Below are positions 1-63,889 of a stretch of DNA of 64,000 nucleotides, piece by piece. The stretch comes from Patescibacteria group bacterium (GTDB taxonomy: Bacteria > Patescibacteriota > Patescibacteriia > UBA2591 > JAQWAS01), in contig JAQWAS010000005.1 in NCBI GenBank assembly GCA_028707495.1, forward strand, positions 1,065 through 65,064, given 5' to 3'. The translations under genes were made by a program, and so were the position numbers. The notes beneath the pieces were generated by a model. It had not been told where the DNA came from. It saw only the letters and a list, made by a program, of their open reading frames with translations, and did no database searches. Position 1 is the first letter of the stretch. Every line of letters starts with the position of its first letter.

Positions 1-981
1 GAAAAAGAACTCAAGCACTACAAGAAACAATTTCGAGGCAAGATTGTTTATTGTAATTGTGATGATCCATACGAGAGCAACTTTTTTAAATACTTCGCAT
101 CCAACTTTAATGCCCTTGGATTAAAAAAGATTATCGCCACGAGTTACAGTGGTTCACCGATTATTGGAGGCCAATTACCTCTATTTCAAATGGCTGGCTC
201 AAAGGGCAAACAACCGCTCAAAATTGAGATTAAAGAAGTGCCAGACATAGATAAAGATGGGGCAATAAACCTTGACGATGTTAAGTATTTGCTCAAACAT
301 GATAAAAACACCGCCACCCCATTAAAAAGTAGCGGCGATTTTCGAAGTGATGAGTGTATAAAACTACTAAAGCAAGCCGATATAGTCGTAACCAATCCGC
401 CGTTTTCTTTGTTCCGTGAATACTTGGCTCAACTGATGGAATACAATAAGAAATTTTTAATTCTCGGCGATCAAAATAACATAACTAAAAAAGACATTTT
501 TAAATTTATAAAGGAAAATAAAGTATGGCTTGGTTACGATAATGGTGGCACAAAGTGGTTCCAGGTGCCAGATGATTATGATATTGCAACCGAGTCAAGA
601 AAAAAAATTGTAAATGGAATCAAGTACTTCAGTATGGGGAGAATTTTGTGGTTTACTAATCTTGAAACTACCAAGCGGCACGAGAATATTGTGTTGTATA
701 AAAAATATGTACCTGAAGAATTTCCTAAGTATGACAACTACAATGCCATTAACATTGACAAGGTTTCCGACATTCCAAAGAATTATAATAGAGTAATGGG
801 TGTTCCGATAACATTTATTGATAAATATAATCCCGAACAGTTTGAACTATTGGGAATTATGAATACAGGCGAAAAAAATATAGGCATAAGATACAAAGGG
901 ACACCACACGGAAGACCGCTTGTGAACGGGGTTGAAAAGTATCTTCGTATTTTAATAAAAATAAAAAAACTAAAAAAATAA
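1..981 (+). CDS. N6-adenine DNA methyltransferase, EcoRI-methylase-like family (5' end outside window)
   Basis: Open frame 1 runs from base 1 with no start (EKELKHYKKQFRGKIVYCNCDDPYESNFFKYF...). NPPF catalytic motif (IVVTNPPFSLFREYL). VYCNCDDP and GVMGVPITF blocks resemble the M.EcoRI family, recalled from memory. Stop at 979-981 overlaps the next start. Confidence 0.65.
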   Translation, partial: EKELKHYKKQFRGKIVYCNCDDPYESNFFKYFASNFNALGLKKIIATSYSGSPIIGGQLPLFQMAGSKGKQPLKIEIKEVPDIDKDGAINLDDVKYLLKHDKNTATPLKSSGDFRSDECIKLLKQADIVVTNPPFSLFREYLAQLMEYNKKFLILGDQNNITKKDIFKFIKENKVWLGYDNGGTKWFQVPDDYDIATESRKKIVNGIKYFSMGRILWFTNLETTKRHENIVLYKKYVPEEFPKYDNYNAINIDKVSDIPKNYNRVMGVPITFIDKYNPEQFELLGIMNTGEKNIGIRYKGTPHGRPLVNGVEKYLRILIKIKKLKK

Positions 982-982
982 T

Positions 983-2089
983 ATGAAAATCGATCTACAT
1001 AAAATCACAATTCGTAAAGTTATAGCTGGCTATAAAGATAGCGCCGAAGAAGGCGTAACGGCGTACGATGACAAATTAAATATTCGTCCAAAATATCAAC
1101 GTGAGTTTGTATACAAGGAAAAACAACGCAATGCAGTAATAGAAACTATCAAAAATAGCTTTCCGCTAAATGTGATGTATTGGATGATTAGAGAAGATGG
1201 CGGTTACGAAGTATTGGACGGACAACAGCGCACAATCAGTATTGGGCAGTATGTTACTGGCGATTTTTCACTGAACGACCGCTTTTTTCATAATTTAACC
1301 AAAGAGGAGCAGGAGAAAATTTTAGATTATGAATTGATGATTTATTTTTGCGAAGGCACGGACAAAGAACGACTGGATTGGTTTAGGATTATCAATATTG
1401 CCGGTGAAAAACTGACTGATCAGGAGATCCGCAATGCGGTTTATACTGGCCCATGGCTCTCGGACGCCAAATTAAAATTCAGCAAATCAAATTGTGTGGC
1501 GTACTTATTGGCAAATGACGGTGGCTCGCTTGTTAGTGGCTCACCAATACGACAAGAATATTTAGAAACAGCACTTTCTTGGATAAATGATGGCAAAATC
1601 GAAGATTACATGGCTAAACACCAGCACGATAAAAGTGCCGATGAGCTATGGGATTATTTTCAAAATGTAATTGCGTGGGCACGAGAGGCTTTTACTAATT
1701 ATCGCCGAGAAATGAGCAATGTGCCTTGGGGCGTGCTATACAACCAATTCAATAGTAAAAAAATTGATTCAAAGAAACTGGAAAAGGAAATAGCAAAGTT
1801 GATGCAGGACGAAGATGTGACTAAAAAATCCGGCATTTATGAATATGTTTTAACTAGAAATGAAAAGTTTTTGAATATACGAGCTTTCACCGAAAAAATG
1901 AAGCGTGAAGCATATGAGAGACAAAAAGGAATTTGTCCGCATTGTAAAGGCAAGAATAAAAAAAAGAAATGGGAAATTGAAGAAATGGAAGCCGACCATA
2001 TAAAGCCTTGGCACGAAGGCGGAAAAACAACTGCAGTAAATTGCCAAATGTTATGCAAACAAGACAATAGAACTAAATCAGGAAAATAA
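983..2089 (+). CDS. DUF262 (ParB/Srx-like, DGQQR motif) protein with C-terminal HNH nuclease motif
   Basis: N-terminal LDGQQR motif typical of DUF262/ParB-like NTPase-nuclease domains. C-terminal CPHCKGKN...ADHIKPWHEGGKTTAVNCQMLCKQDN is an HNH ββα-metal motif with two CxxC pairs. Start is 1 nt after the MTase stop (taatATG). Confidence 0.65.
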   Translation: MKIDLHKITIRKVIAGYKDSAEEGVTAYDDKLNIRPKYQREFVYKEKQRNAVIETIKNSFPLNVMYWMIREDGGYEVLDGQQRTISIGQYVTGDFSLNDRFFHNLTKEEQEKILDYELMIYFCEGTDKERLDWFRIINIAGEKLTDQEIRNAVYTGPWLSDAKLKFSKSNCVAYLLANDGGSLVSGSPIRQEYLETALSWINDGKIEDYMAKHQHDKSADELWDYFQNVIAWAREAFTNYRREMSNVPWGVLYNQFNSKKIDSKKLEKEIAKLMQDEDVTKKSGIYEYVLTRNEKFLNIRAFTEKMKREAYERQKGICPHCKGKNKKKKWEIEEMEADHIKPWHEGGKTTAVNCQMLCKQDNRTKSGK

Positions 2090-2162
2090 AGACAATATAT
2101 TACACCGAATGGAAGAATAAGGTATTTTATCATCCTACTTAAAAAAATTATTATTAAAAACA

Positions 2163-4766
2163 ATGTCAATAATAGCAGACATAATAGATTGGTCTGGTGG
2201 TAAACCAATATTTCTCCAGGAGGCCATTGGACGAATTATCCAAAAAAACGTCTTATCAGATGATGATATTTTAGAATTAACATTAATTTGCAAATCGGAG
2301 CAAGGACTAACAAAATATCAAGGAAATTTAATAGATCTAAAAAAAGTAAAAGAATCTTTAAAAGAGTCCGATGTATCTAACGCTGTTTCTGTGATAAAAA
2401 TTTTTTCGACGGAAAATATAAATGCTTTACAAAACAATTCTGAAATAGATATTGAAGAAAAAGGATTAACGGTTATATATGGTGACAATGGATCGGGAAA
2501 ATCTAGTTATGTCAGTATATTGAAACAAGTTTGCAACACGAGAGGAAGTATTCCCACAATTAATAAAAACCTTTTTATTGGATCTGCCGCGCAACAAAAT
2601 CAAAAAGCCAAAATACAGTACAAAACAGGAGAAAATGTGGCTTCGGTTACTTGGGAAAACAACAATTCAGACAGTAACATATTGAAGGCAGTGCACATAT
2701 ACGACACAAAAAGTGCAAGTTCTTATATTGAAGATGAAGATGAAATCGCTTTTATCCCTTCGGGTTTATTAATCGTAGAACAACTCGCCAATGTATGTAA
2801 TAGGATTGAAGAAAATCTCAGAAAAGAAATAGGACAAATAGAATCAAGAAAACTTGATTATTCATTTTTAATTAATGAAGAAGGTAATGGAATTCAAACT
2901 TTTTTAAAAAACCTTAGTGCAAGAAGTGATCTAAAAACATTAGACAATATCTCAAATTTTACGACTGACGATGAAAAGTTGCTAAAAGCAACAGAACAAG
3001 AAATCGCAAAATTAAAAACACTAGATCCTGCTCAAAAAATATCTGAAAATAATAAAATTATATCTCGTTTTAACTCTCTAAAAGCAAGGTACGAGCAGAT
3101 ACTATCTAAATTATCTATTGAAAAAATTGAAGAAATAAAAAAAGACGTTCTAAAGAGCACTGAACTTCAAAGCGCAAGCAAAGCTCTCACCGAACAAACC
3201 TTTTCGGATTTACCACTGAAAAGTATTGGGTCTCAACCATGGAAAGTATTATGGGAAAGCGCAAAGAGATTTTATCAATATTCTGAATCAAAAAATTTTC
3301 CTGACCACGACGAAAGCTCAGTGTGCCCTCTTTGTTTACAAAATTTAAGTGATGAGGCAAAAGAAAGATTTAAAAATCTCGAGGCATTCGTACAGTCAGA
3401 TATACAAAATCAAATAAACGCCATTGGGATTAAATTGCGTCAGTCAAGTCAAGAAATTTCGAGTATTAATTTGAATTTTTCGGAAATTGAAACCACCCTT
3501 AATGAACTCGATGAAATATCTAGTAATTTTAAGCAACGGCACGCAAATCAAATAGATACAATTAATAAGTACGTAATTTCTGTAATGAACTTACTTGCAG
3601 GACGAGAAAGCCCTGGGTCATTTAATGCGCAAGAGCTATCTATAGATCTGATTGAAGTAATAAAGAAAATTGTAGAAAAAATTGAGGAAGAAAATAAGAC
3701 GCTGTTACAAAAATCATATCAAAAAGACCTTGAAGCACAAGCAAAGACTCTTTCATTGCTAAAATCTAAAAAAGATTTATCTGAAAATAAAGAAAAAATA
3801 AAAGACGAGATAAAAAGACAACGTTTTGTAGATGGTCTATTTTTATGTATACGAACTTGCAACACGAGACATATTTCAATTTTAAGCAACACATTATCAG
3901 AACAGTACATCACAGAAACGCTCAAAAATAACTTTACAGATGAACTAAAAAGACTTGGTTTTACTGGAGTAGAAATAGTTACATCAACTCGAAGTAGAAG
4001 CGGAAAACAATATCATTTTCTTGAATTAGATTCATCATATGGAAGTAACGCGAACTTGAAGGAAATACTAAGCGAGGGAGAACACAGATGTATTTCTTTG
4101 GCTACGTTTTTGTCGGAACTTTCCATTTCAGGACATAAATCTTCAATTATATTTGATGATCCGGTCTCTTCTCTAGATCATAAATGGCGAAAAAAAATTG
4201 CTAAAAGAATTGTAGAAGAATCACAGGAAAGACAGGTTATTGTTTTTACACATGACATTACTTTTTTAATGAACCTTCAAGAGTTTGATGACGAAATAAA
4301 AATCCAAAGCTTGACTAGAAAAAAATTTGAAACTGGCATATCCTCAAAAAATCCACCATGGGATGCATTATCTACAAAAAATAGAATCAAAATATTAAAG
4401 GAATACTTACAGCAATTAGAAGAGGCCAAAAATACTGAAACAGAAGAAATTTATAAAGAAAAATCTAAAGTATTTTATGGACAACTTCGTGAAGCATGGG
4501 AAAGATGTATTGAGGAGGTTGTTTTGAATGAATCTGTACAAAGATTTGGTCGTTCTATACAAACTAAACGACTAGAAAAAGTTGTTGATTTAACGGAGGA
4601 AGACTATAAAATTATTGAAGATAATATGGAAGAATGTTCAACTTATCTTACGGGCCATGATAGTGCAGGAGAATTAATTGAAGAGGCGCCCACAATTGAA
4701 GAAACAAAAAATGACTTAGCCGCTTTAGAAATTTTTACAAAAACCATACACAAGAGAAGACAATAA
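2163..4766 (+). CDS. RloC/PrrC-like ABC ATPase with coiled-coil zinc hook (putative anticodon-nuclease / abortive-infection protein)
   Basis: Walker A LTVIYGDNGSGKSS near N-terminus. Long charged, coiled-coil-like middle with SSVCPLCLQNL (CxxC zinc hook as in Rad50/RloC). Walker B/D-loop SIIFDDPVSSLD and H-loop VFTHD at ~aa 650-690. ~190-aa C-terminal tail with R..E..H-type residues. Located in an R-M context. Confidence 0.5.
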   Translation: MSIIADIIDWSGGKPIFLQEAIGRIIQKNVLSDDDILELTLICKSEQGLTKYQGNLIDLKKVKESLKESDVSNAVSVIKIFSTENINALQNNSEIDIEEKGLTVIYGDNGSGKSSYVSILKQVCNTRGSIPTINKNLFIGSAAQQNQKAKIQYKTGENVASVTWENNNSDSNILKAVHIYDTKSASSYIEDEDEIAFIPSGLLIVEQLANVCNRIEENLRKEIGQIESRKLDYSFLINEEGNGIQTFLKNLSARSDLKTLDNISNFTTDDEKLLKATEQEIAKLKTLDPAQKISENNKIISRFNSLKARYEQILSKLSIEKIEEIKKDVLKSTELQSASKALTEQTFSDLPLKSIGSQPWKVLWESAKRFYQYSESKNFPDHDESSVCPLCLQNLSDEAKERFKNLEAFVQSDIQNQINAIGIKLRQSSQEISSINLNFSEIETTLNELDEISSNFKQRHANQIDTINKYVISVMNLLAGRESPGSFNAQELSIDLIEVIKKIVEKIEEENKTLLQKSYQKDLEAQAKTLSLLKSKKDLSENKEKIKDEIKRQRFVDGLFLCIRTCNTRHISILSNTLSEQYITETLKNNFTDELKRLGFTGVEIVTSTRSRSGKQYHFLELDSSYGSNANLKEILSEGEHRCISLATFLSELSISGHKSSIIFDDPVSSLDHKWRKKIAKRIVEESQERQVIVFTHDITFLMNLQEFDDEIKIQSLTRKKFETGISSKNPPWDALSTKNRIKILKEYLQQLEEAKNTETEEIYKEKSKVFYGQLREAWERCIEEVVLNESVQRFGRSIQTKRLEKVVDLTEEDYKIIEDNMEECSTYLTGHDSAGELIEEAPTIEETKNDLAALEIFTKTIHKRRQ

Positions 4767-4892
4767 GGAGTTTTGGGCTACGGGCATTCACCCCTTTAAT
4801 TCCCCTCTGCCCTTCGCCCAAAACGGAAAAAGAAATTTTAAAATTTTTTAAAACAATTCCGACTGCTGTCGGATAAAAGAAAAGGAATACAT

Positions 4893-4996
4893 CAGCTAAC
4901 ACGGCATATCTGGTTACGGTTCGCCTCCGGCGAGCCTCCACCCATATTTTACTTCGCTTCGCTCTGTAAAACATCAGATATGCCGAAACGTTATAC
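4893..4996 (+). repeat. attC-like structured palindrome A (R'' agctaac, L'' ggcatatctg ... L' cagatatgcc, spacer gaaac, R' gttatacg)
   Basis: Perfect 10-bp inner inverted repeat 4902-4911 / 4974-4983. Outer TAAC/GTTA cores. Asymmetric spacers (2 vs 5 nt). ~60-nt variable centre. Lies between RloC-like stop and HD gene start. Confidence 0.5.
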
Positions 4997-5059
4997 GAAA
5001 TTCACTCCGCCCCACCTCAAAGACAAACTTTTATAAAATAGCTTAAATCTATCTAAAAT

Positions 5060-5731
5060 ATGGATCAAAAATTTCAAAAAATCAAAGAAGCTGTAGAAAA
5101 GGAACTTTCCTGTTCTGCTCACAATATGGATCATGTAATGAGAGTTTATAATCTTTCTTTGCATCTTGCTGAAAATAAAGATATTGATTTAGATGTTCTC
5201 AAAGCATCTGCTTTATTACATGATATCGCAAGAGTCAAAGAAGATAATGATCATACTGGAAAAACCGATCATGCAATCTTAAGCTCTGAAATGGCAGTGC
5301 CAATTTTAAAAGAACTTGATTTTTCAGAAGAACAAATTAAGCACATTCAAGATTGCATAATCTCACACAGATACAGAACAGGAAATGAAGCTAAAACCAA
5401 AGAAGCTCAAATTCTATTTGACGCAGATAAATTAGACACTCTTGGTGCAATCGGAATTGCAAGAAGTTTTGTCTGGGTTGGAAGAAATAACGCCAAAATT
5501 TATACAGATACCAATATTGAAAAATATATAGATGAAAATTTAGGCGGAAAAATAAACGGAAGAATCCAAGACAAAACTAAACATAGTCCGCAAATAGAAT
5601 TTGAAACGAAATTGAAATTTTTGATCACTAAGTTGCATACTGATAAAGCTAAAGAAGTATGCAAAGAAAGAATTGAATTTTATAAAAGTTTTTTAGATAG
5701 ATTAAAAAGCGAAATTAATGGTGAACTATAA
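5060..5731 (+). CDS. HD-domain metal-dependent phosphohydrolase
   Basis: H...HD...H...D pattern (SAHNMDHVMRV, ALLHDIARV, ISHRYRTG, FDADKLD). Confidence 0.7.
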   Translation: MDQKFQKIKEAVEKELSCSAHNMDHVMRVYNLSLHLAENKDIDLDVLKASALLHDIARVKEDNDHTGKTDHAILSSEMAVPILKELDFSEEQIKHIQDCIISHRYRTGNEAKTKEAQILFDADKLDTLGAIGIARSFVWVGRNNAKIYTDTNIEKYIDENLGGKINGRIQDKTKHSPQIEFETKLKFLITKLHTDKAKEVCKERIEFYKSFLDRLKSEINGEL

Positions 5732-5796
5732 AACGGTGGGGCTCCGTGAACTCAAGGGGACGCTGCGCTTTCACTCCACTTCGTTTCGTTCACCCT

Positions 5797-5898
5797 CGTA
5801 TAACAAGGGATAAAAGGAAAATTGCTCGGCTCGCAATTTTCCCAAATTTTTCTTTCACTCCGTTCCAGAAAAACTTCTTTTATCCCCGATGTTATACG
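5797..5898 (+). repeat. attC-like structured palindrome B (R'' cgtataac ... R' gttatacg)
   Basis: 5' arm cgtataacaagggataaaagg pairs with 3' arm ccttttatccccgatgttatacg. This gives a 9-bp outer stem, a 2/3-nt asymmetric internal loop and a 10-bp inner stem. Central hairpin aaaattgc/gcaatttt. Confidence 0.5.
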
Positions 5899-5930
5899 AA
5901 ATAATTAAATTCTTTTGGCTATCGCCAAAA

Positions 5931-5960
5931 ATTATTGGGGCAAATTTTTATTTTATTTTT
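5931..5960. repeat. Left copy of perfect 30-bp inverted repeat attattggggcaaatttttattttattttt
   Basis: Exact reverse complement present at 7644-7673. The pair brackets three plus-strand membrane ORFs (5967-7635). Confidence 0.8.
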
Positions 5961-5966
5961 TAGAAC

Positions 5967-7019
5967 ATGAACAAAAACCAAATCATAACATTATCAGGAT
6001 ATAGTATCATCCATGGGATTATAGACCTATGCTGTGCAGTGGTTGTTTTTAGTACATTACTATATCATGGTTATGATGCAAAAGATGTCTTTATTTTTGT
6101 CGTGGCTTACAATGTAATAGCTTTTGGACTACAAGCACCTTTTGGATTTTTAGTGGATAGATATCAAGTCCCCAAAGAAAGCGCTTTAATTGGTTGTATT
6201 TTAGTTTTATCTTCTTTTTTTATATTTAGTATACCTGCTTTGGTTATAATATTATCAGGATTAGGAAATGCTTTTTTTCATGTTGGCGGAGGAAGTATCA
6301 GTTTAAATTTTAATCCAACCAAAGCAACTGCACCGGGGATTTTTGTTGCGCCGGGCGCGCTAGGGCTAACAATCGGAATCATGGTTGGTAAAAGCGGATC
6401 ATTTATTTCTTGGCCTTTTGTTTTATTGCTTATTGCTTCATGTCTATTTATTATCTCTAGAAAAATCCCAGAAATTAACTATCAAAAAATATCGGCCAAA
6501 CCAAAAATTAAGTACTTTGAATTAATTATCATATTGCTTTTACTTTCTGTCGCAATAAGGGCTCTTTATGGCTTAGCCGCCGCTTGGAAAACTGACTTTA
6601 ACTTATTATTGATTTTGACCTTTGCAATAGTCGCTGGCAAGGCATTAGGTGGAATTTTTGCTGATAAGTTTGGATGGATAAAAACCGCAATTTTTGCGTT
6701 GGTAGTTTCAGCTCCCTTGCTTGCTTTTTTCCAAAGTTCACCAATACTAGCTATAACTGGTGCATTTTTATTTCAAATGACCATGCCAATAACATTAACT
6801 GCTCTATCGAACATGCTTCCAGGCAGATCAGCCACTGCTTTTGGTTTAACGGTTTTAGCTTTGATTATAGGCGTTATTCCTACTTACATTGGAGCCAAGC
6901 CATTTTTAAACAATCAATGGATAACTCTTGCAATTGTAGCCATATCTGCAAGTTCGCTACTAATTAGTTTCAAATTTTTGTATAATTATTTCAAAGGTCA
7001 ACTTAAAATTAATTTATAA
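5967..7019 (+). CDS. Polytopic membrane protein, MFS-transporter-like
   Basis: 350 aa, ~10-11 hydrophobic helices, G-rich helix motifs (GAFLFQMTMPITLTALSNMLPGRSATAFG). Confidence 0.45.
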   Translation: MNKNQIITLSGYSIIHGIIDLCCAVVVFSTLLYHGYDAKDVFIFVVAYNVIAFGLQAPFGFLVDRYQVPKESALIGCILVLSSFFIFSIPALVIILSGLGNAFFHVGGGSISLNFNPTKATAPGIFVAPGALGLTIGIMVGKSGSFISWPFVLLLIASCLFIISRKIPEINYQKISAKPKIKYFELIIILLLLSVAIRALYGLAAAWKTDFNLLLILTFAIVAGKALGGIFADKFGWIKTAIFALVVSAPLLAFFQSSPILAITGAFLFQMTMPITLTALSNMLPGRSATAFGLTVLALIIGVIPTYIGAKPFLNNQWITLAIVAISASSLLISFKFLYNYFKGQLKINL

Positions 7020-7036
7020 TTTAATCAAAATAGCTT

Positions 7037-7291
7037 ATGAAAAAAATCAAAACAGTCTTAATAACCCTTTCCTTCTTCGCAGTTTCATCGCTAATGTTTG
7101 CACAAAATGCGCTAGCGGATTTACTGCCTCCTCCTGATGGCGGATGGGACACTCCAAGCAGACCAAACATCAATCCAGAACCAAAAACTTTTATTGATTT
7201 AATTGAACCACAACATATTGTTATTGGCGGAGCAGTTTTGGCTGTAGTAATAATATCTTTTGTAGTGCTCTTTAAAATGAGAAAAAAATGA
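7037..7291 (+). CDS. Small secreted protein with C-terminal TM anchor
   Basis: Signal peptide MKKIKTVLITLSFFAVSSLMFAQNALA, proline-rich segment, C-terminal hydrophobic helix + KMRKK. Confidence 0.4.
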   Translation: MKKIKTVLITLSFFAVSSLMFAQNALADLLPPPDGGWDTPSRPNINPEPKTFIDLIEPQHIVIGGAVLAVVIISFVVLFKMRKK

Positions 7292-7635
7292 GATTAGAAT
7301 ACTATTTTCTAGCTCTAATTTTAACTCTAATAATTGAGCTATCCATAGCTTATGTTTTTGGATTTAGGAGTAAAAAAAACATTGTTACGATTATTTTTGC
7401 TAATTTCATAACACACCCCTTGCTTTGTTATTTTTTATGGATGAATTCAGTTATCTTTGTTATTCCAATTAATTACATTTCAATTATTGTTTTAGAGGTA
7501 TTGGTTGCATTATTAGAATCAGCTCTATTATTTTTAGCACTAAAACAAAAATACTTAGATATGTTAAAATTATCATTTGGTATAAACATAGTATCTTTTC
7601 TTGTTGGTTTATTAATATTCAAAAATAATTTTTAA
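7288..7635 (+). CDS. Small integral membrane protein
   Basis: 115 aa, 3-4 hydrophobic segments. Start overlaps the previous stop (ATGA). Confidence 0.4.
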   Translation: MRLEYYFLALILTLIIELSIAYVFGFRSKKNIVTIIFANFITHPLLCYFLWMNSVIFVIPINYISIIVLEVLVALLESALLFLALKQKYLDMLKLSFGINIVSFLVGLLIFKNNF

Positions 7636-7643
7636 ATAAGGAA

Positions 7644-7673
7644 AAATAAAATAAAAATTTGCCCCAATAATAA
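7644..7673. repeat. Right copy (inverted) of 30-bp perfect repeat
   Basis: aaaaataaaataaaaatttgccccaataat is the reverse complement of 5931-5960. Confidence 0.8.
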
Positions 7674-7683
7674 CTCGCTATCG

Positions 7684-7772
7684 CTCGTTGAATTTAATTA
7701 CATCATATAACAGCGTGTATGAGGCTACGGCTTTTTACAAAAGCCTTCGCCCAAATTGCTTCGCAACTTCTC
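7684..7772 (+). repeat. attC-like structured palindrome C (R'' catataac ... R' gttatacg)
   Basis: 5' arm catataacagcgtgtatgagg vs 3' arm ctcatacgcgcgaacgttatacg. Central hairpin ggcttttt-aca-aaaagcc. Confidence 0.5.
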
Positions 7773-7846
7773 ATACGCGCGAACGTTATACGTCGTAATA
7801 AAAATCCTCCTTATATTTTTTAATAATTTTGGTAACTTATAAAATT

Positions 7847-8086
7847 ATGAAAACACTAGAACAAAGAGAACCGCAATCAACACCAAATCAAGAATTAGAC
7901 AATCTTAAAAAAGAATTGGAAGAAAAAGGATATGTCGTGACAGAAACATCCCAACGTGGACAAAAGACTGATGTTACTATAAAAAATGATCTTGGTCAGG
8001 AAGGTAGTGGTGAAGGATATACATACGAAACAGCGCTTAAAAAAGCAATAACAGCTTTAGATTACATTATAAAAAATAAACTATAA
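7847..8086 (+). CDS. HicB-like / UPF0150-fold small protein (possible antitoxin-type)
   Basis: LGQEGSGEGYTYETALKKAITAL resembles the G.G.T.EEAL.NA.EA signature of HicB/UPF0150. The ORF-track start at 7829 uses TTG; the first ATG is 7847. Confidence 0.4.
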   Translation: MKTLEQREPQSTPNQELDNLKKELEEKGYVVTETSQRGQKTDVTIKNDLGQEGSGEGYTYETALKKAITALDYIIKNKL

Positions 8087-8111
8087 AAAAAGGAATCGAC
8101 TTTTTATTACG

Positions 8112-8186
8112 ACGTATAACACCGCATATCCAACATACTTTTTCACTCCATTCAAAAGTACGTCGGATCATGCAGAAACGTTGTGC
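8112..8186 (+). repeat. attC-like structured palindrome D (R'' cgtataac ... R' gttgtgcg)
   Basis: 5' arm cgtataacaccgcatatcc vs 3' arm ggatcatgcagaaacgttgtgcgac. Inner stem has one bulged C. Spacers 1 vs 4 nt. Confidence 0.5.
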
Positions 8187-8310
8187 GACATACATTTTTT
8201 ATCTCTTCTACAATTGAAAGTCAGAATTGAAATCAGGAAACAAAACAAGATTTTTGATTTTTAAGGAGGGGAATAAGGAACTTTTTTATCTAAATTAATG
8301 AAAAAAATTA

Positions 8311-8964
8311 ATGAAAAAAAATTTAGGAGTTATAAAAAACGGTTTATTCACAGGGTTTGTAATTCAATTGGCAATTGGACCAATCTTCTTTTTTGTGATT
8401 AATCTTACTCTTCAGAAAACCATTCTTGATGGGCTAATGGGAGTTTTTGCGGCGACAATTGTTGGATACATTTACATTGCTCTTTCTGCTTTTGGTATCG
8501 GAAAATTGCTCGAAAATAAAAAAACAAGTAAAATATTTGCAGCAATTAGTTCAATTGTTCTAATAATTTTTGGAGGAATAATTATAAAAGGAGCTTTAAG
8601 TAGCGGAGTTTCTGATAGTGTGATCAATACATCAAGTCTTTTTTCTAGCTTTACATCCGTTTTTTTACTTGCGATTTCTAATCCATTGAGCATTGTCTTT
8701 TTTACAAGTCTGTTTTCAACAAAAGCAATTGAATATAATTATACGAAAAAAGAACTGTATTTTTTTGGTCTAGGGACTGGATTATCAACTTTGATATTTA
8801 TGGGTGGTGCTGTTTTGATTTTTTCTTTACTCAAAGGCACAATACCAACAATTGTTATGCAAATACTGAACATAATTGTAGGAATTCTAATAATCGGATA
8901 TGGTACAATGAGATTGGTAAAACTTTTGAAAGAAAATAGGTTGGCTCGCAAAATTCACCCCTAA
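8311..8964 (+). CDS. LysE/RhtB-type small-molecule exporter (6-TM)
   Basis: 217 aa, six hydrophobic helices, N-terminal AIGPIFFFVINLTLQ resembles the LysE/RhtB family. Confidence 0.45.
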   Translation: MKKNLGVIKNGLFTGFVIQLAIGPIFFFVINLTLQKTILDGLMGVFAATIVGYIYIALSAFGIGKLLENKKTSKIFAAISSIVLIIFGGIIIKGALSSGVSDSVINTSSLFSSFTSVFLLAISNPLSIVFFTSLFSTKAIEYNYTKKELYFFGLGTGLSTLIFMGGAVLIFSLLKGTIPTIVMQILNIIVGILIIGYGTMRLVKLLKENRLARKIHP

Positions 8965-9061
8965 CCCCTCTTTTGCTCGCCAAATGGAAAAAATCTTGTT
9001 TTGTTTGGCTTGAAAAATAAGGTCTAGATTGTAATTCACGAGATAAAAAATGTACTAAACC

Positions 9062-9130
9062 CTACGGGGTCGCACAACTGCCACTATCCGACATCCTCCG
9101 CTATCGCTACGGACGATCGGATCAGTGGCA
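9062..9130 (+). repeat. attC-like structured palindrome E (R'' gcacaac ... R' gttatta)
   Basis: 5' arm gcacaactgccactatccg vs 3' arm cggatcagtggcatacgttatta. Same bulged ggatCa feature as D. Last element before the strand switch. Confidence 0.45.
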
Positions 9131-9145
9131 TACGTTATTAAATTT

Positions 9146-63704: not shown

Positions 63705-63747
63705 GGATGGTGTTTATTGTGAGAATTAATATAGGGAGCGACATTTT

Positions 63748-63889
63748 GGATAACGTTTCGGCATATCTGATGTTTGCCAAAATTCCTTTAAAAATCAATT
63801 AGTTTTGGCAAATTTGGGTGAAAGAATTTTTTACTCCTTATTAATATTAAAAATGAAAAATTCTTGAACCAGATATGCCGTGTTGTGCG
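63748..63889 (-). repeat. attC-like structured palindrome (inverted orientation). Inner stems identical to element A
   Basis: Minus-strand reading: R'' gcacaac, spacer ac, L'' ggcatatctgg ...~100 nt... L' cagatatgcc, spacer gaaac, R' gttatcc. 142 bp. Lies between two minus-strand ORFs. Confidence 0.5.

Follow-up and report, generated by a model that had tools for sequence, protein, structure and literature searches.

The three genes that open the stretch of DNA analysed here, a 64,000-nucleotide (nt) piece of a Patescibacteria metagenome-assembled genome (MAG) that is referred to as "the window" and whose coordinates are used throughout, encode a DNA methyltransferase, a nuclease and an ABC ATPase, and they resemble several systems described previously. 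The assignment to a Patescibacteria MAG comes from exact matches to NCBI proteins. RloC, exemplified by the wobble-nucleotide-excising anticodon nuclease of Geobacillus kaustophilus, has been defined by a length of 658-897 amino acids (aa), ABC motifs, a CX2C zinc hook and an Arg-X3-Glu-X36-52-His motif (Davidov & Kaufmann 2008, PMC2610378), and linkage to restriction-modification (R-M) genes is a known property of the RloC/PrrC class (PMC2610378, PMC3710099). PrrC-EcoprrI, an anticodon nuclease from a Type Ic R-M system, is an ABC-ATPase-plus-effector gene within the R-M operon that provides a second line of defence; PrrC proteins have 341-416 aa, lack a coiled-coil insert and a zinc hook, and are always linked to hsdMSR. 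R-M operons that contain ABC-HEPN genes alongside RhuM or Doc genes were described in 2013 (PMC3710099). Type II R-M systems with HNH enzymes are organised as methyltransferase-then-nuclease operons, the HNH domain carrying CxxC...CxxxC zinc ligands, while GmrSD, BrxU and SspE, Type IV or PT-sensing nucleases that act on modified DNA and have no cognate methyltransferase, carry an N-terminal DUF262 domain (DGQQR) followed by a His-Me-finger nuclease, DUF1524. Finally, sedentary chromosomal integrons, regarded as defence biobanks, carry arrays in which attC-like sites flank the defence genes.

Bases 1-4766 of the window are filled by three co-oriented open reading frames (ORFs) on the + strand, as had been claimed in an initial annotation of this DNA, whose domain calls for all three genes were borne out by Pfam and PADLOC, as was the 73-nt spacer that it placed before gene 3.

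1..981, + strand: gene 1, an EcoRI-family (gamma-class, NPPF) N6-adenine DNA methyltransferase, 5'-truncated at the window edge (NPPF motif at nt 394-405)
983..2089, + strand: gene 2, a DUF262 (ParB/Srx-like, DGQQR)-HNH endonuclease of 368 aa, the presumed cognate restriction enzyme (DGQQR at nt 1217-1231; HNH/zinc motif at nt 1934-2068)
2090..2162, + strand: AT-rich spacer of 73 nt, with a promoter-like match at 2127-2154
2163..4766, + strand: gene 3, an 867-aa ABC ATPase of the AAA_13 / PDC-S06 (RloC-like) class (Walker A 2481-2507; CPLC zinc hook 3324-3335; LSEGE 4068-4082; Walker B 4146-4160; H-loop His 4251-4253)
4275..4763, + strand: C-terminal effector-candidate domain of gene 3, aa 705-867, modelled as a four-helix bundle plus a beta-hairpin (invariant residues R776, nt 4488-4490; E780, nt 4500-4502; H832, nt 4656-4658)

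We hold, with moderate confidence, that these genes represent two defence modules, a Type II-like R-M system (genes 1 and 2) and a single-gene RloC-like ATPase (gene 3), probably riding on one integron-type cassette of ~5 kb in a Patescibacteria chromosome. The gene content, the conservation of the motifs, the family memberships and the linkage of the methyltransferase-nuclease pair were observed directly, as was the linkage of the ATPase to the pair, which recurs but is facultative. Both modules are of known, catalogued anti-phage kinds, and their association follows a known pattern; the defence content is ordinary, and the arrangement is moderately interesting. No new concept is needed, and annotation pipelines already label both modules. 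Mildly new are the nature of the partner, a Type II-like DUF262-HNH protein, the tail of the ATPase subfamily, which is non-canonical, and the probable carriage of the genes on a multi-gene integron-type cassette in Patescibacteria.

Gene 1 is cut at the window edge, as its frame is open from base 1 (stop TAA at 979-981), and since its full-length homologues have 347-373 aa, approximately 29 codons are missing. It matched Pfam PF13651 EcoRI_methylase (E 3e-122; profile positions 21-345 of 345) and PADLOC MTase_II (E 4e-108); a PDB sequence search with the methyltransferase yielded nothing meaningful. An overlap between its stop and the start of gene 2, proposed in the initial annotation, was rejected, as the ATG of gene 2 lies at 983-985 and one base separates the two genes.

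The gene 2 protein carries a GmrSD_N/DUF262 domain at residues 34-154 (62 bits) and an HNH domain, PF01844, at residues 318-366 (40 bits), with D79-G-Q-Q-R83, C318/C321, D338-H339, N353, C354/C358 and N362 invariant in 31 homologues. It matched the PADLOC REase_II model PDLC03418 over the whole length of the model (positions 1-372 of 372, E 3.5e-136), and its family is therefore already catalogued as a restriction enzyme. Weak PADLOC matches to NsnA and PD-T4-2_A were also seen; a PDB sequence search gave weak HNH matches only, and the AlphaFold model, built from a shallow alignment of sequences with 85% identity or more, is of low confidence (predicted local distance difference test, pLDDT, 45). 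The pair resembles Type II systems with HNH enzymes in its gene order and in its zinc ligands, but gene 2 has an N-terminal DUF262 NTPase-type domain that is missing from classical Type II enzymes. The DGQQR domain hints that the nuclease may depend on nucleoside triphosphate (NTP), which would be atypical for Type II. No characterisation of DUF262+HNH Type II enzymes or of PF13651 partners was found in the literature, nor any biochemical study of this organisation of the nuclease (ParB-like NTPase plus HNH). A palindrome-avoidance (k-mer) scan of the window and ~1 Mb of carrier loci revealed no AATT-type or other clear outlier site.

A scan of one genome per species detected relatives of the nuclease in at least 580 species genomes, and the loci of the best 80 of these relatives (L005-L084; 77-93% identical) were examined. 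Their hosts include Patescibacteria, Omnitrophota, Atribacterota, Gammaproteobacteria, Bacteroidota, Planctomycetota and others. In 74 of these loci, the gene immediately upstream of the nuclease, in the same orientation, encodes an EcoRI-family methyltransferase; in most of the remaining six, the nuclease is within ~1 kb of a contig end. The annotated pair also occurs, at 48-59% identity, on plasmids of cultured Mammaliicoccus, Aeromonas, Gordonia, Variovorax and Enterococcus. A Type II R-M system is characterised by a conserved pair of neighbouring genes, one for the methyltransferase and another for the endonuclease, and by cleavage that is sequence-specific, blocked by the cognate methylation and independent of NTP. 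Genes 1 and 2 show the conserved pairing and would form a Type II-like system of this sort, in which cleavage by the cognate nuclease is presumed. If the pair acts in this way, it constitutes a very widespread restriction family spanning hundreds of species and many phyla. The suggestion that the combination is not one recognised as described was therefore overstated, given the full-length match to a catalogued REase_II model and the presence of the pair in at least 580 species genomes as well as on plasmids. The same applies to the novelty seen in an RloC/PrrC-type gene beside an R-M system, as ABC-HEPN genes within R-M operons were already known (PMC3710099).

Within L005-L084, the nuclease is more conserved than the methyltransferase, with a median pairwise identity of 82% versus 67%; nuclease identity exceeds methyltransferase identity in 94% of locus pairs, a figure biased by the choice of loci according to nuclease similarity. 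The two identities barely co-vary (Spearman 0.11 for these 80 loci selected by nuclease similarity). R-M systems usually show the opposite pattern, and the finding suggests that partners have been shuffled. One or two extra genes separate the methyltransferase from the nuclease in L005, L006, L018, L019, L022, L026, L027, L036, L041, L045, L049, L052, L065 and L077, and candidate defence genes found upstream of or inside the pair include T5orf172/PDC-S57, RhuM/PDC-S05, an OLD/Gabija-like ATPase and DUF2130. Because genes are inserted within it, the pair can be considered a hotspot for embedded candidate defence genes, and those that it hosts match the 2013 description of ABC-HEPN/R-M operons (PMC3710099).

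Gene 3 matched Pfam AAA_13 (PF13166, the PrrC/RloC family) with 53.5 bits (cut-off 36) over residues 104-754, and PADLOC PDC-S06 (PDLC04891) over positions 1-857 of 858 (E 4.8e-258). The PDC systems of PADLOC are untested candidates found by "guilt by embedding", and in a survey of Bacillus cereus the proteins named PDC-S06 by PADLOC were those called RloC by DefenseFinder. In an alignment of 119 homologues, mostly from Flavobacteriia at 44-48% identity, Walker A (GDNGSGKSS, 107-115) is almost entirely invariant, and CPLC 388-391, LSEGE 636-640, Walker B IIFDD 662-666 and the H-loop H697 are invariant. A PDB sequence search gave modest matches to AriA and Rad50. Gene 3 agrees with all four elements of the RloC definition (PMC2610378): its 867 aa fall within 658-897, it has the ABC motifs and a CX2C zinc hook in the coiled-coil insert that splits the ATPase, and its C-terminal R776-x3-E780-x51-H832 fits the required spacing, this triad being a pattern match only. 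Like RloC, it is occasionally linked to R-M. A canonical RloC family was built from the ATPase of L078, which covers AAA_13 fully, matches the PrrC hidden Markov model (HMM) at 1e-10 and carries an R-x3-E-x34-SH motif, together with its homologues, which are named "wobble nucleotide-excising tRNase" by JGI. The gene 3 family aligned with this family by hhalign over residues 352-706, from the zinc hook to the H-loop, with a probability of 96.6%, and the CPLC of gene 3 is aligned with the CPFC of the canonical family. Gene 3 differs from RloC in its ~90 extra N-terminal residues and in its partner, which is Type II-like instead of Type I/III. It differs from PrrC in its size, in its zinc hook and in being associated, facultatively, with a two-gene Type II-like system; no hsd genes were found beside it.

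The effector candidate of gene 3 lies in its tail, which was first put at ~190 aa but extends only for ~165-170 aa beyond the H-loop. A cluster of residues there is almost wholly invariant (R776, E777, W779, E780, R781, E784, E785, N789, R794, R797, G831, H832 and D833). The AlphaFold 2 (AF2) model of the tail is a confident one, a four-helix bundle plus a beta-hairpin (pLDDT 79), and four of its top 12 matches in a Foldseek search of the PDB, all weak, are HEPN proteins (E 0.2-1). Pfam, applied to the tail alone, recognised no family, HEPN families included. The domain was found in 2191 cluster representatives and is C-terminal in the 150 best matches, mostly proteins of ~860 aa; the shorter ones among these are probably fragments.

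In this reading, the EcoRI-family methyltransferase would methylate adenine in host DNA, and the tightly coupled DUF262-HNH protein would cut unmethylated incoming DNA by means of its HNH (beta-beta-alpha-Me) site, while its DGQQR ParB-like domain would probably bind and/or hydrolyse NTP and help in DNA recognition or in gating cleavage. The Rad50-like head of gene 3, split by the zinc-hook coiled coil, would sense DNA damage or restriction failure, by analogy with RloC/PrrC, and in response would set free the C-terminal four-helix domain to act as a toxic effector, most probably as a tRNA-targeting RNase. Infection would thereby be aborted when restriction is evaded. It is plausible that gene 3 works like RloC, and by the same analogy its tail may have RNase or tRNase activity.

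The cassette frame is provided by elements that follow gene 3.

4770..4824, + strand: conserved hairpin directly after the gene 3 stop, a 17-nt inverted repeat that is 88% complementary
4893..4999, + strand: attC-like site ending in GTTATACGAAAT, which closes the presumed methyltransferase-nuclease-ATPase cassette
5797-5900: further attC-like site
7704-7792: further attC-like site
8113-8190: further attC-like site
9071-9141: further attC-like site

All five attC-like sites have TATAAC...GTTATAC boxes; four of the five stems have z between -3.6 and -4.7, and compensatory changes occur at 7 of 15 consensus pairs across them. A covariance model was built from these five sites and applied to the other loci. 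The site at 4893-4999 (92 bits with this model, of which it is a training member; DNA fold z -4.2) follows the ORFs and has paired R''/R' and L''/L' boxes, as an integron cassette does. In L029 the order is attC, methyltransferase, nuclease, an AAA_13 ATPase of a different subfamily, the same hairpin and attC, the first attC being 175 nt upstream of the methyltransferase; window 4762-4913 and L029 5721-5871, which include the hairpin and the start of the downstream attC, are 84% identical. In L021 the pair alone lies between two attC-like sites. By analogy with these loci, the trio of the window is probably one integron-type cassette of ~5 kb, which with its three genes would be unusually large for an integron defence cassette and which also differs from the known ones in its host, a Patescibacteria MAG. 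The palindrome reported after gene 3 is indeed present, although it is actually two elements, the hairpin and the attC-like site. The guess that the module forms a very large first cassette gains support from the cassette frame of L029, but the 5' boundary of the presumed cassette falls outside the window. No integrase was seen at 9-18 kb, and no integrase or attI in the window; the integrase would therefore lie to the left of it.

The ATPase is recurrently, although not obligatorily, linked to the pair. Three AAA_13/PDC-S06 ATPases of other subfamilies, in L029, L070 and L078, start 7-48 nt after the nuclease and make up the largest cluster of downstream genes. The next-closest clade to gene 3 (61%) is found in L085/L086, a diverged trio with the order helix-turn-helix gene, methyltransferase, DUF262-HNH, ATPase (4-nt gap) and DUF2130, where the methyltransferase, DUF262-HNH and ATPase are 64%, 59% and 61% identical to those of the window. 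In four of seven distinct contexts, the member of the gene 3 family neighbours R-M or restriction-endonuclease genes; in another two, its neighbours are defence-type helicase-nuclease genes. A trio of this kind thus recurs in L029/L070/L078, with ATPases of other subfamilies, and in L085/L086, but the association is not obligate.

Several observations count against our reading of the locus. Regarding the effector, the Foldseek comparison of the tail with the PDB gave no match reaching E 1e-3, hhalign of the tail against the canonical RloC tail returned a probability of 0.04%, the PrrC HMM did not match gene 3, and the AAA_13 match of gene 3 ends at position 613 of the 713 in the profile. At H832 there is no HEPN Rx4-6H motif: STYLTG precedes this His, with no Arg 4-6 residues before it, and its immediate neighbour is Gly instead of Ser. 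No homology of the tail to the HEPN anticodon-nuclease domains of RloC/PrrC was detected. The RloC/PrrC anticodon-nuclease architecture claimed for gene 3 consequently stands as regards the ABC motifs, the zinc hook and R-x3-E-x51-H, but not as regards the homology of the nuclease tail, which is unproven. Regarding the cassette, its presumed 5' end lies outside the window. Regarding linkage, the subfamily of gene 3 itself occurs in none of the 80 pair loci (homologue threshold E 1e-5), and the genes downstream of the nuclease fall into 69 clusters among 79 loci. A metagenome scan for close relatives of gene 3 returned three loci, and its closest relatives (86-89%) share DNA with the window only from 2144-2162 to 4774-4789; they are found in other contexts, without the methyltransferase/DUF262-HNH pair, adjoining a HinfI-type R-M system (L004) or a superfamily 1 (SF1) helicase-nuclease (L002/L003/L091). 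Flavobacterial members of the gene 3 family occupy other defence-island settings.

Two alternatives concern what the proteins are. Gene 2 might be a modification-dependent nuclease of the Type IV, GmrSD/BrxU-like kind for which the methyltransferase is not the cognate protector, as each of the characterised DUF262 nucleases that were reviewed (GmrSD, BrxU, SspE) either requires DNA modification or senses it, and as weak PADLOC matches to NsnA and PD-T4-2_A were obtained. However, the methyltransferase is strictly coupled and co-oriented with it in 74/80 loci, the gap between the two genes is 1-2 nt in the window and in L085/L086, the REase_II model is matched over its full length, and gene 2 lacks the DUF1524 of the Type IV enzymes, having the PF01844 HNH domain in its place. 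Such invariable linkage favours a cognate R-M system over a Type IV enzyme, which was rejected for gene 2 as highly improbable. Even less credible, to the point of being nearly out of the question, is the notion that gene 3 is a DNA-repair ATPase of the Rad50/SbcC/RecN type. Its zinc hook and its weak SMC_N and Rad50 matches would fit such a role, but no Mre11/SbcD partner gene is present, the family is accessory and patchily distributed in defence contexts, its extra conserved C-terminal domain is missing from Rad50/SbcC, and the PDC-S06 match (E 4.8e-258) points elsewhere; a repair identity was rejected on these grounds. The view of the initial annotation, by which gene 3 is not a housekeeping SMC/RecN protein, agrees with its full-length membership in PDC-S06, a class labelled RloC by DefenseFinder.

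Two further alternatives concern how the two modules are related. The trio could be an obligate three-component system in which gene 3 is a subunit or dedicated guard, bound and silenced by the restriction enzyme as in PrrC-EcoprrI. An AAA_13 ATPase directly follows the nuclease in five independent loci (the window, L029, L070, L078 and L085/86) after short spacers of 4-73 nt, all three genes have diverged to a similar extent in L085/86, and L029 retains the cassette frame even though its ATPase belongs to a different subfamily. Against this, ~95% of the examined pair loci have no such ATPase, the nearest relatives of gene 3 occur without the pair, and its flavobacterial homologues stand alone, and we regard an obligate system as unlikely, while still giving it some weight. 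Slightly less likely still is adjacency devoid of functional meaning, whereby unrelated defence genes accumulate in a cassette array or defence island and recombination happened to place gene 3 beside the pair. This would be in accord with the flanks and interior of the pair hosting T5orf172/PDC-S57, RhuM/PDC-S05, an OLD-like ATPase, DUF2130 and a Ppl-like protein, and with homology to the closest relatives of gene 3 stopping exactly at the ORF ends. Chance, however, does not account well for the same protein class, in different subfamilies, recurring in the same slot, for the existence of a co-diverged trio, or for R-M linkage being a known property of the RloC/PrrC class (PMC2610378, PMC3710099). 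We therefore retain two facultatively associated defence modules as the preferred reading, and the two may be physically coupled.

A bolder proposal, which we consider doubtful, is that the pair is an NTP-gated restriction system that has repeatedly taken on AAA_13 zinc-hook ATPases, interchangeable with one another, as a guard physically coupled to it, that the subfamily of gene 3 (over 2000 clusters at 50% identity) carries an effector fold hitherto unrecognised and distinct from the canonical HEPN anticodon nucleases, and that the trio moves as an integron cassette among candidate-phyla-radiation bacteria. If this were true, sensing of "restriction failure" in the manner of PrrC would operate in a Type II-like system as well. 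The RloC-like ATPases recurring behind the pair offer a compact model for asking whether the guard-of-restriction logic of PrrC reaches beyond Type I. Patescibacteria mostly lack CRISPR, and the locus suggests that they stockpile multi-gene defence cassettes in integron-like arrays.

Some additional observations were made on the flanking elements. In the spacer 2090..2162, a promoter scan gave no more matches than expected by chance, no + strand terminator was detected, and the attC covariance model had no match. The hairpin at 4770-4824 (DNA fold -12.3 kcal/mol, z -3.0) has a 31-nt core, consisting of the inner stem plus loop (GGGCATTCACCCCTTTAATTCCCCTCTGCCC), that is identical in the window, L029 and L091, and it follows unrelated genes in several Patescibacteria contigs (L029 5725-5785, L091 165-238 and L004 ~2716-2790). 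Its possible roles are those of a terminator, a protein-binding site or a component of the cassette structure; an Rfam search of window 1-10 kb gave nothing relevant, and the hairpin had no Rfam match. The motif GTTTTCTCCGCTTCGCT(C/T)NGAAAA brackets the gene 3 homologue in L003 (658-685 and 3302-3325) and lies upstream of the one in L004 (68-95); the window has no copy of it upstream of gene 3.

The + strand cassettes of the array at 4893-9141 encode an HD-domain protein, a membrane-protein trio, an 85-aa protein and a LysE-type translocator, and the core genes ClpB, YidC and GyrA come after the array. Far from it, at 63745-63889 on the - strand, the window has a weak match to the attC model (E 9e-4). 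L091 (298-8172) would hold a two-gene cassette of ~7.7 kb, in which two attC-like sites flank a gene 3 homologue of 89% identity and the gene for an SF1 helicase of 1518 aa that matches REase_MTES_1575 weakly. The diverged trio of L085, in contrast, is opened by the 3' end of a tRNA gene at 1-35 (…GGTTCGAATCC…CCA), which suggests that it was inserted as a tRNA-adjacent island and not as an integron cassette.

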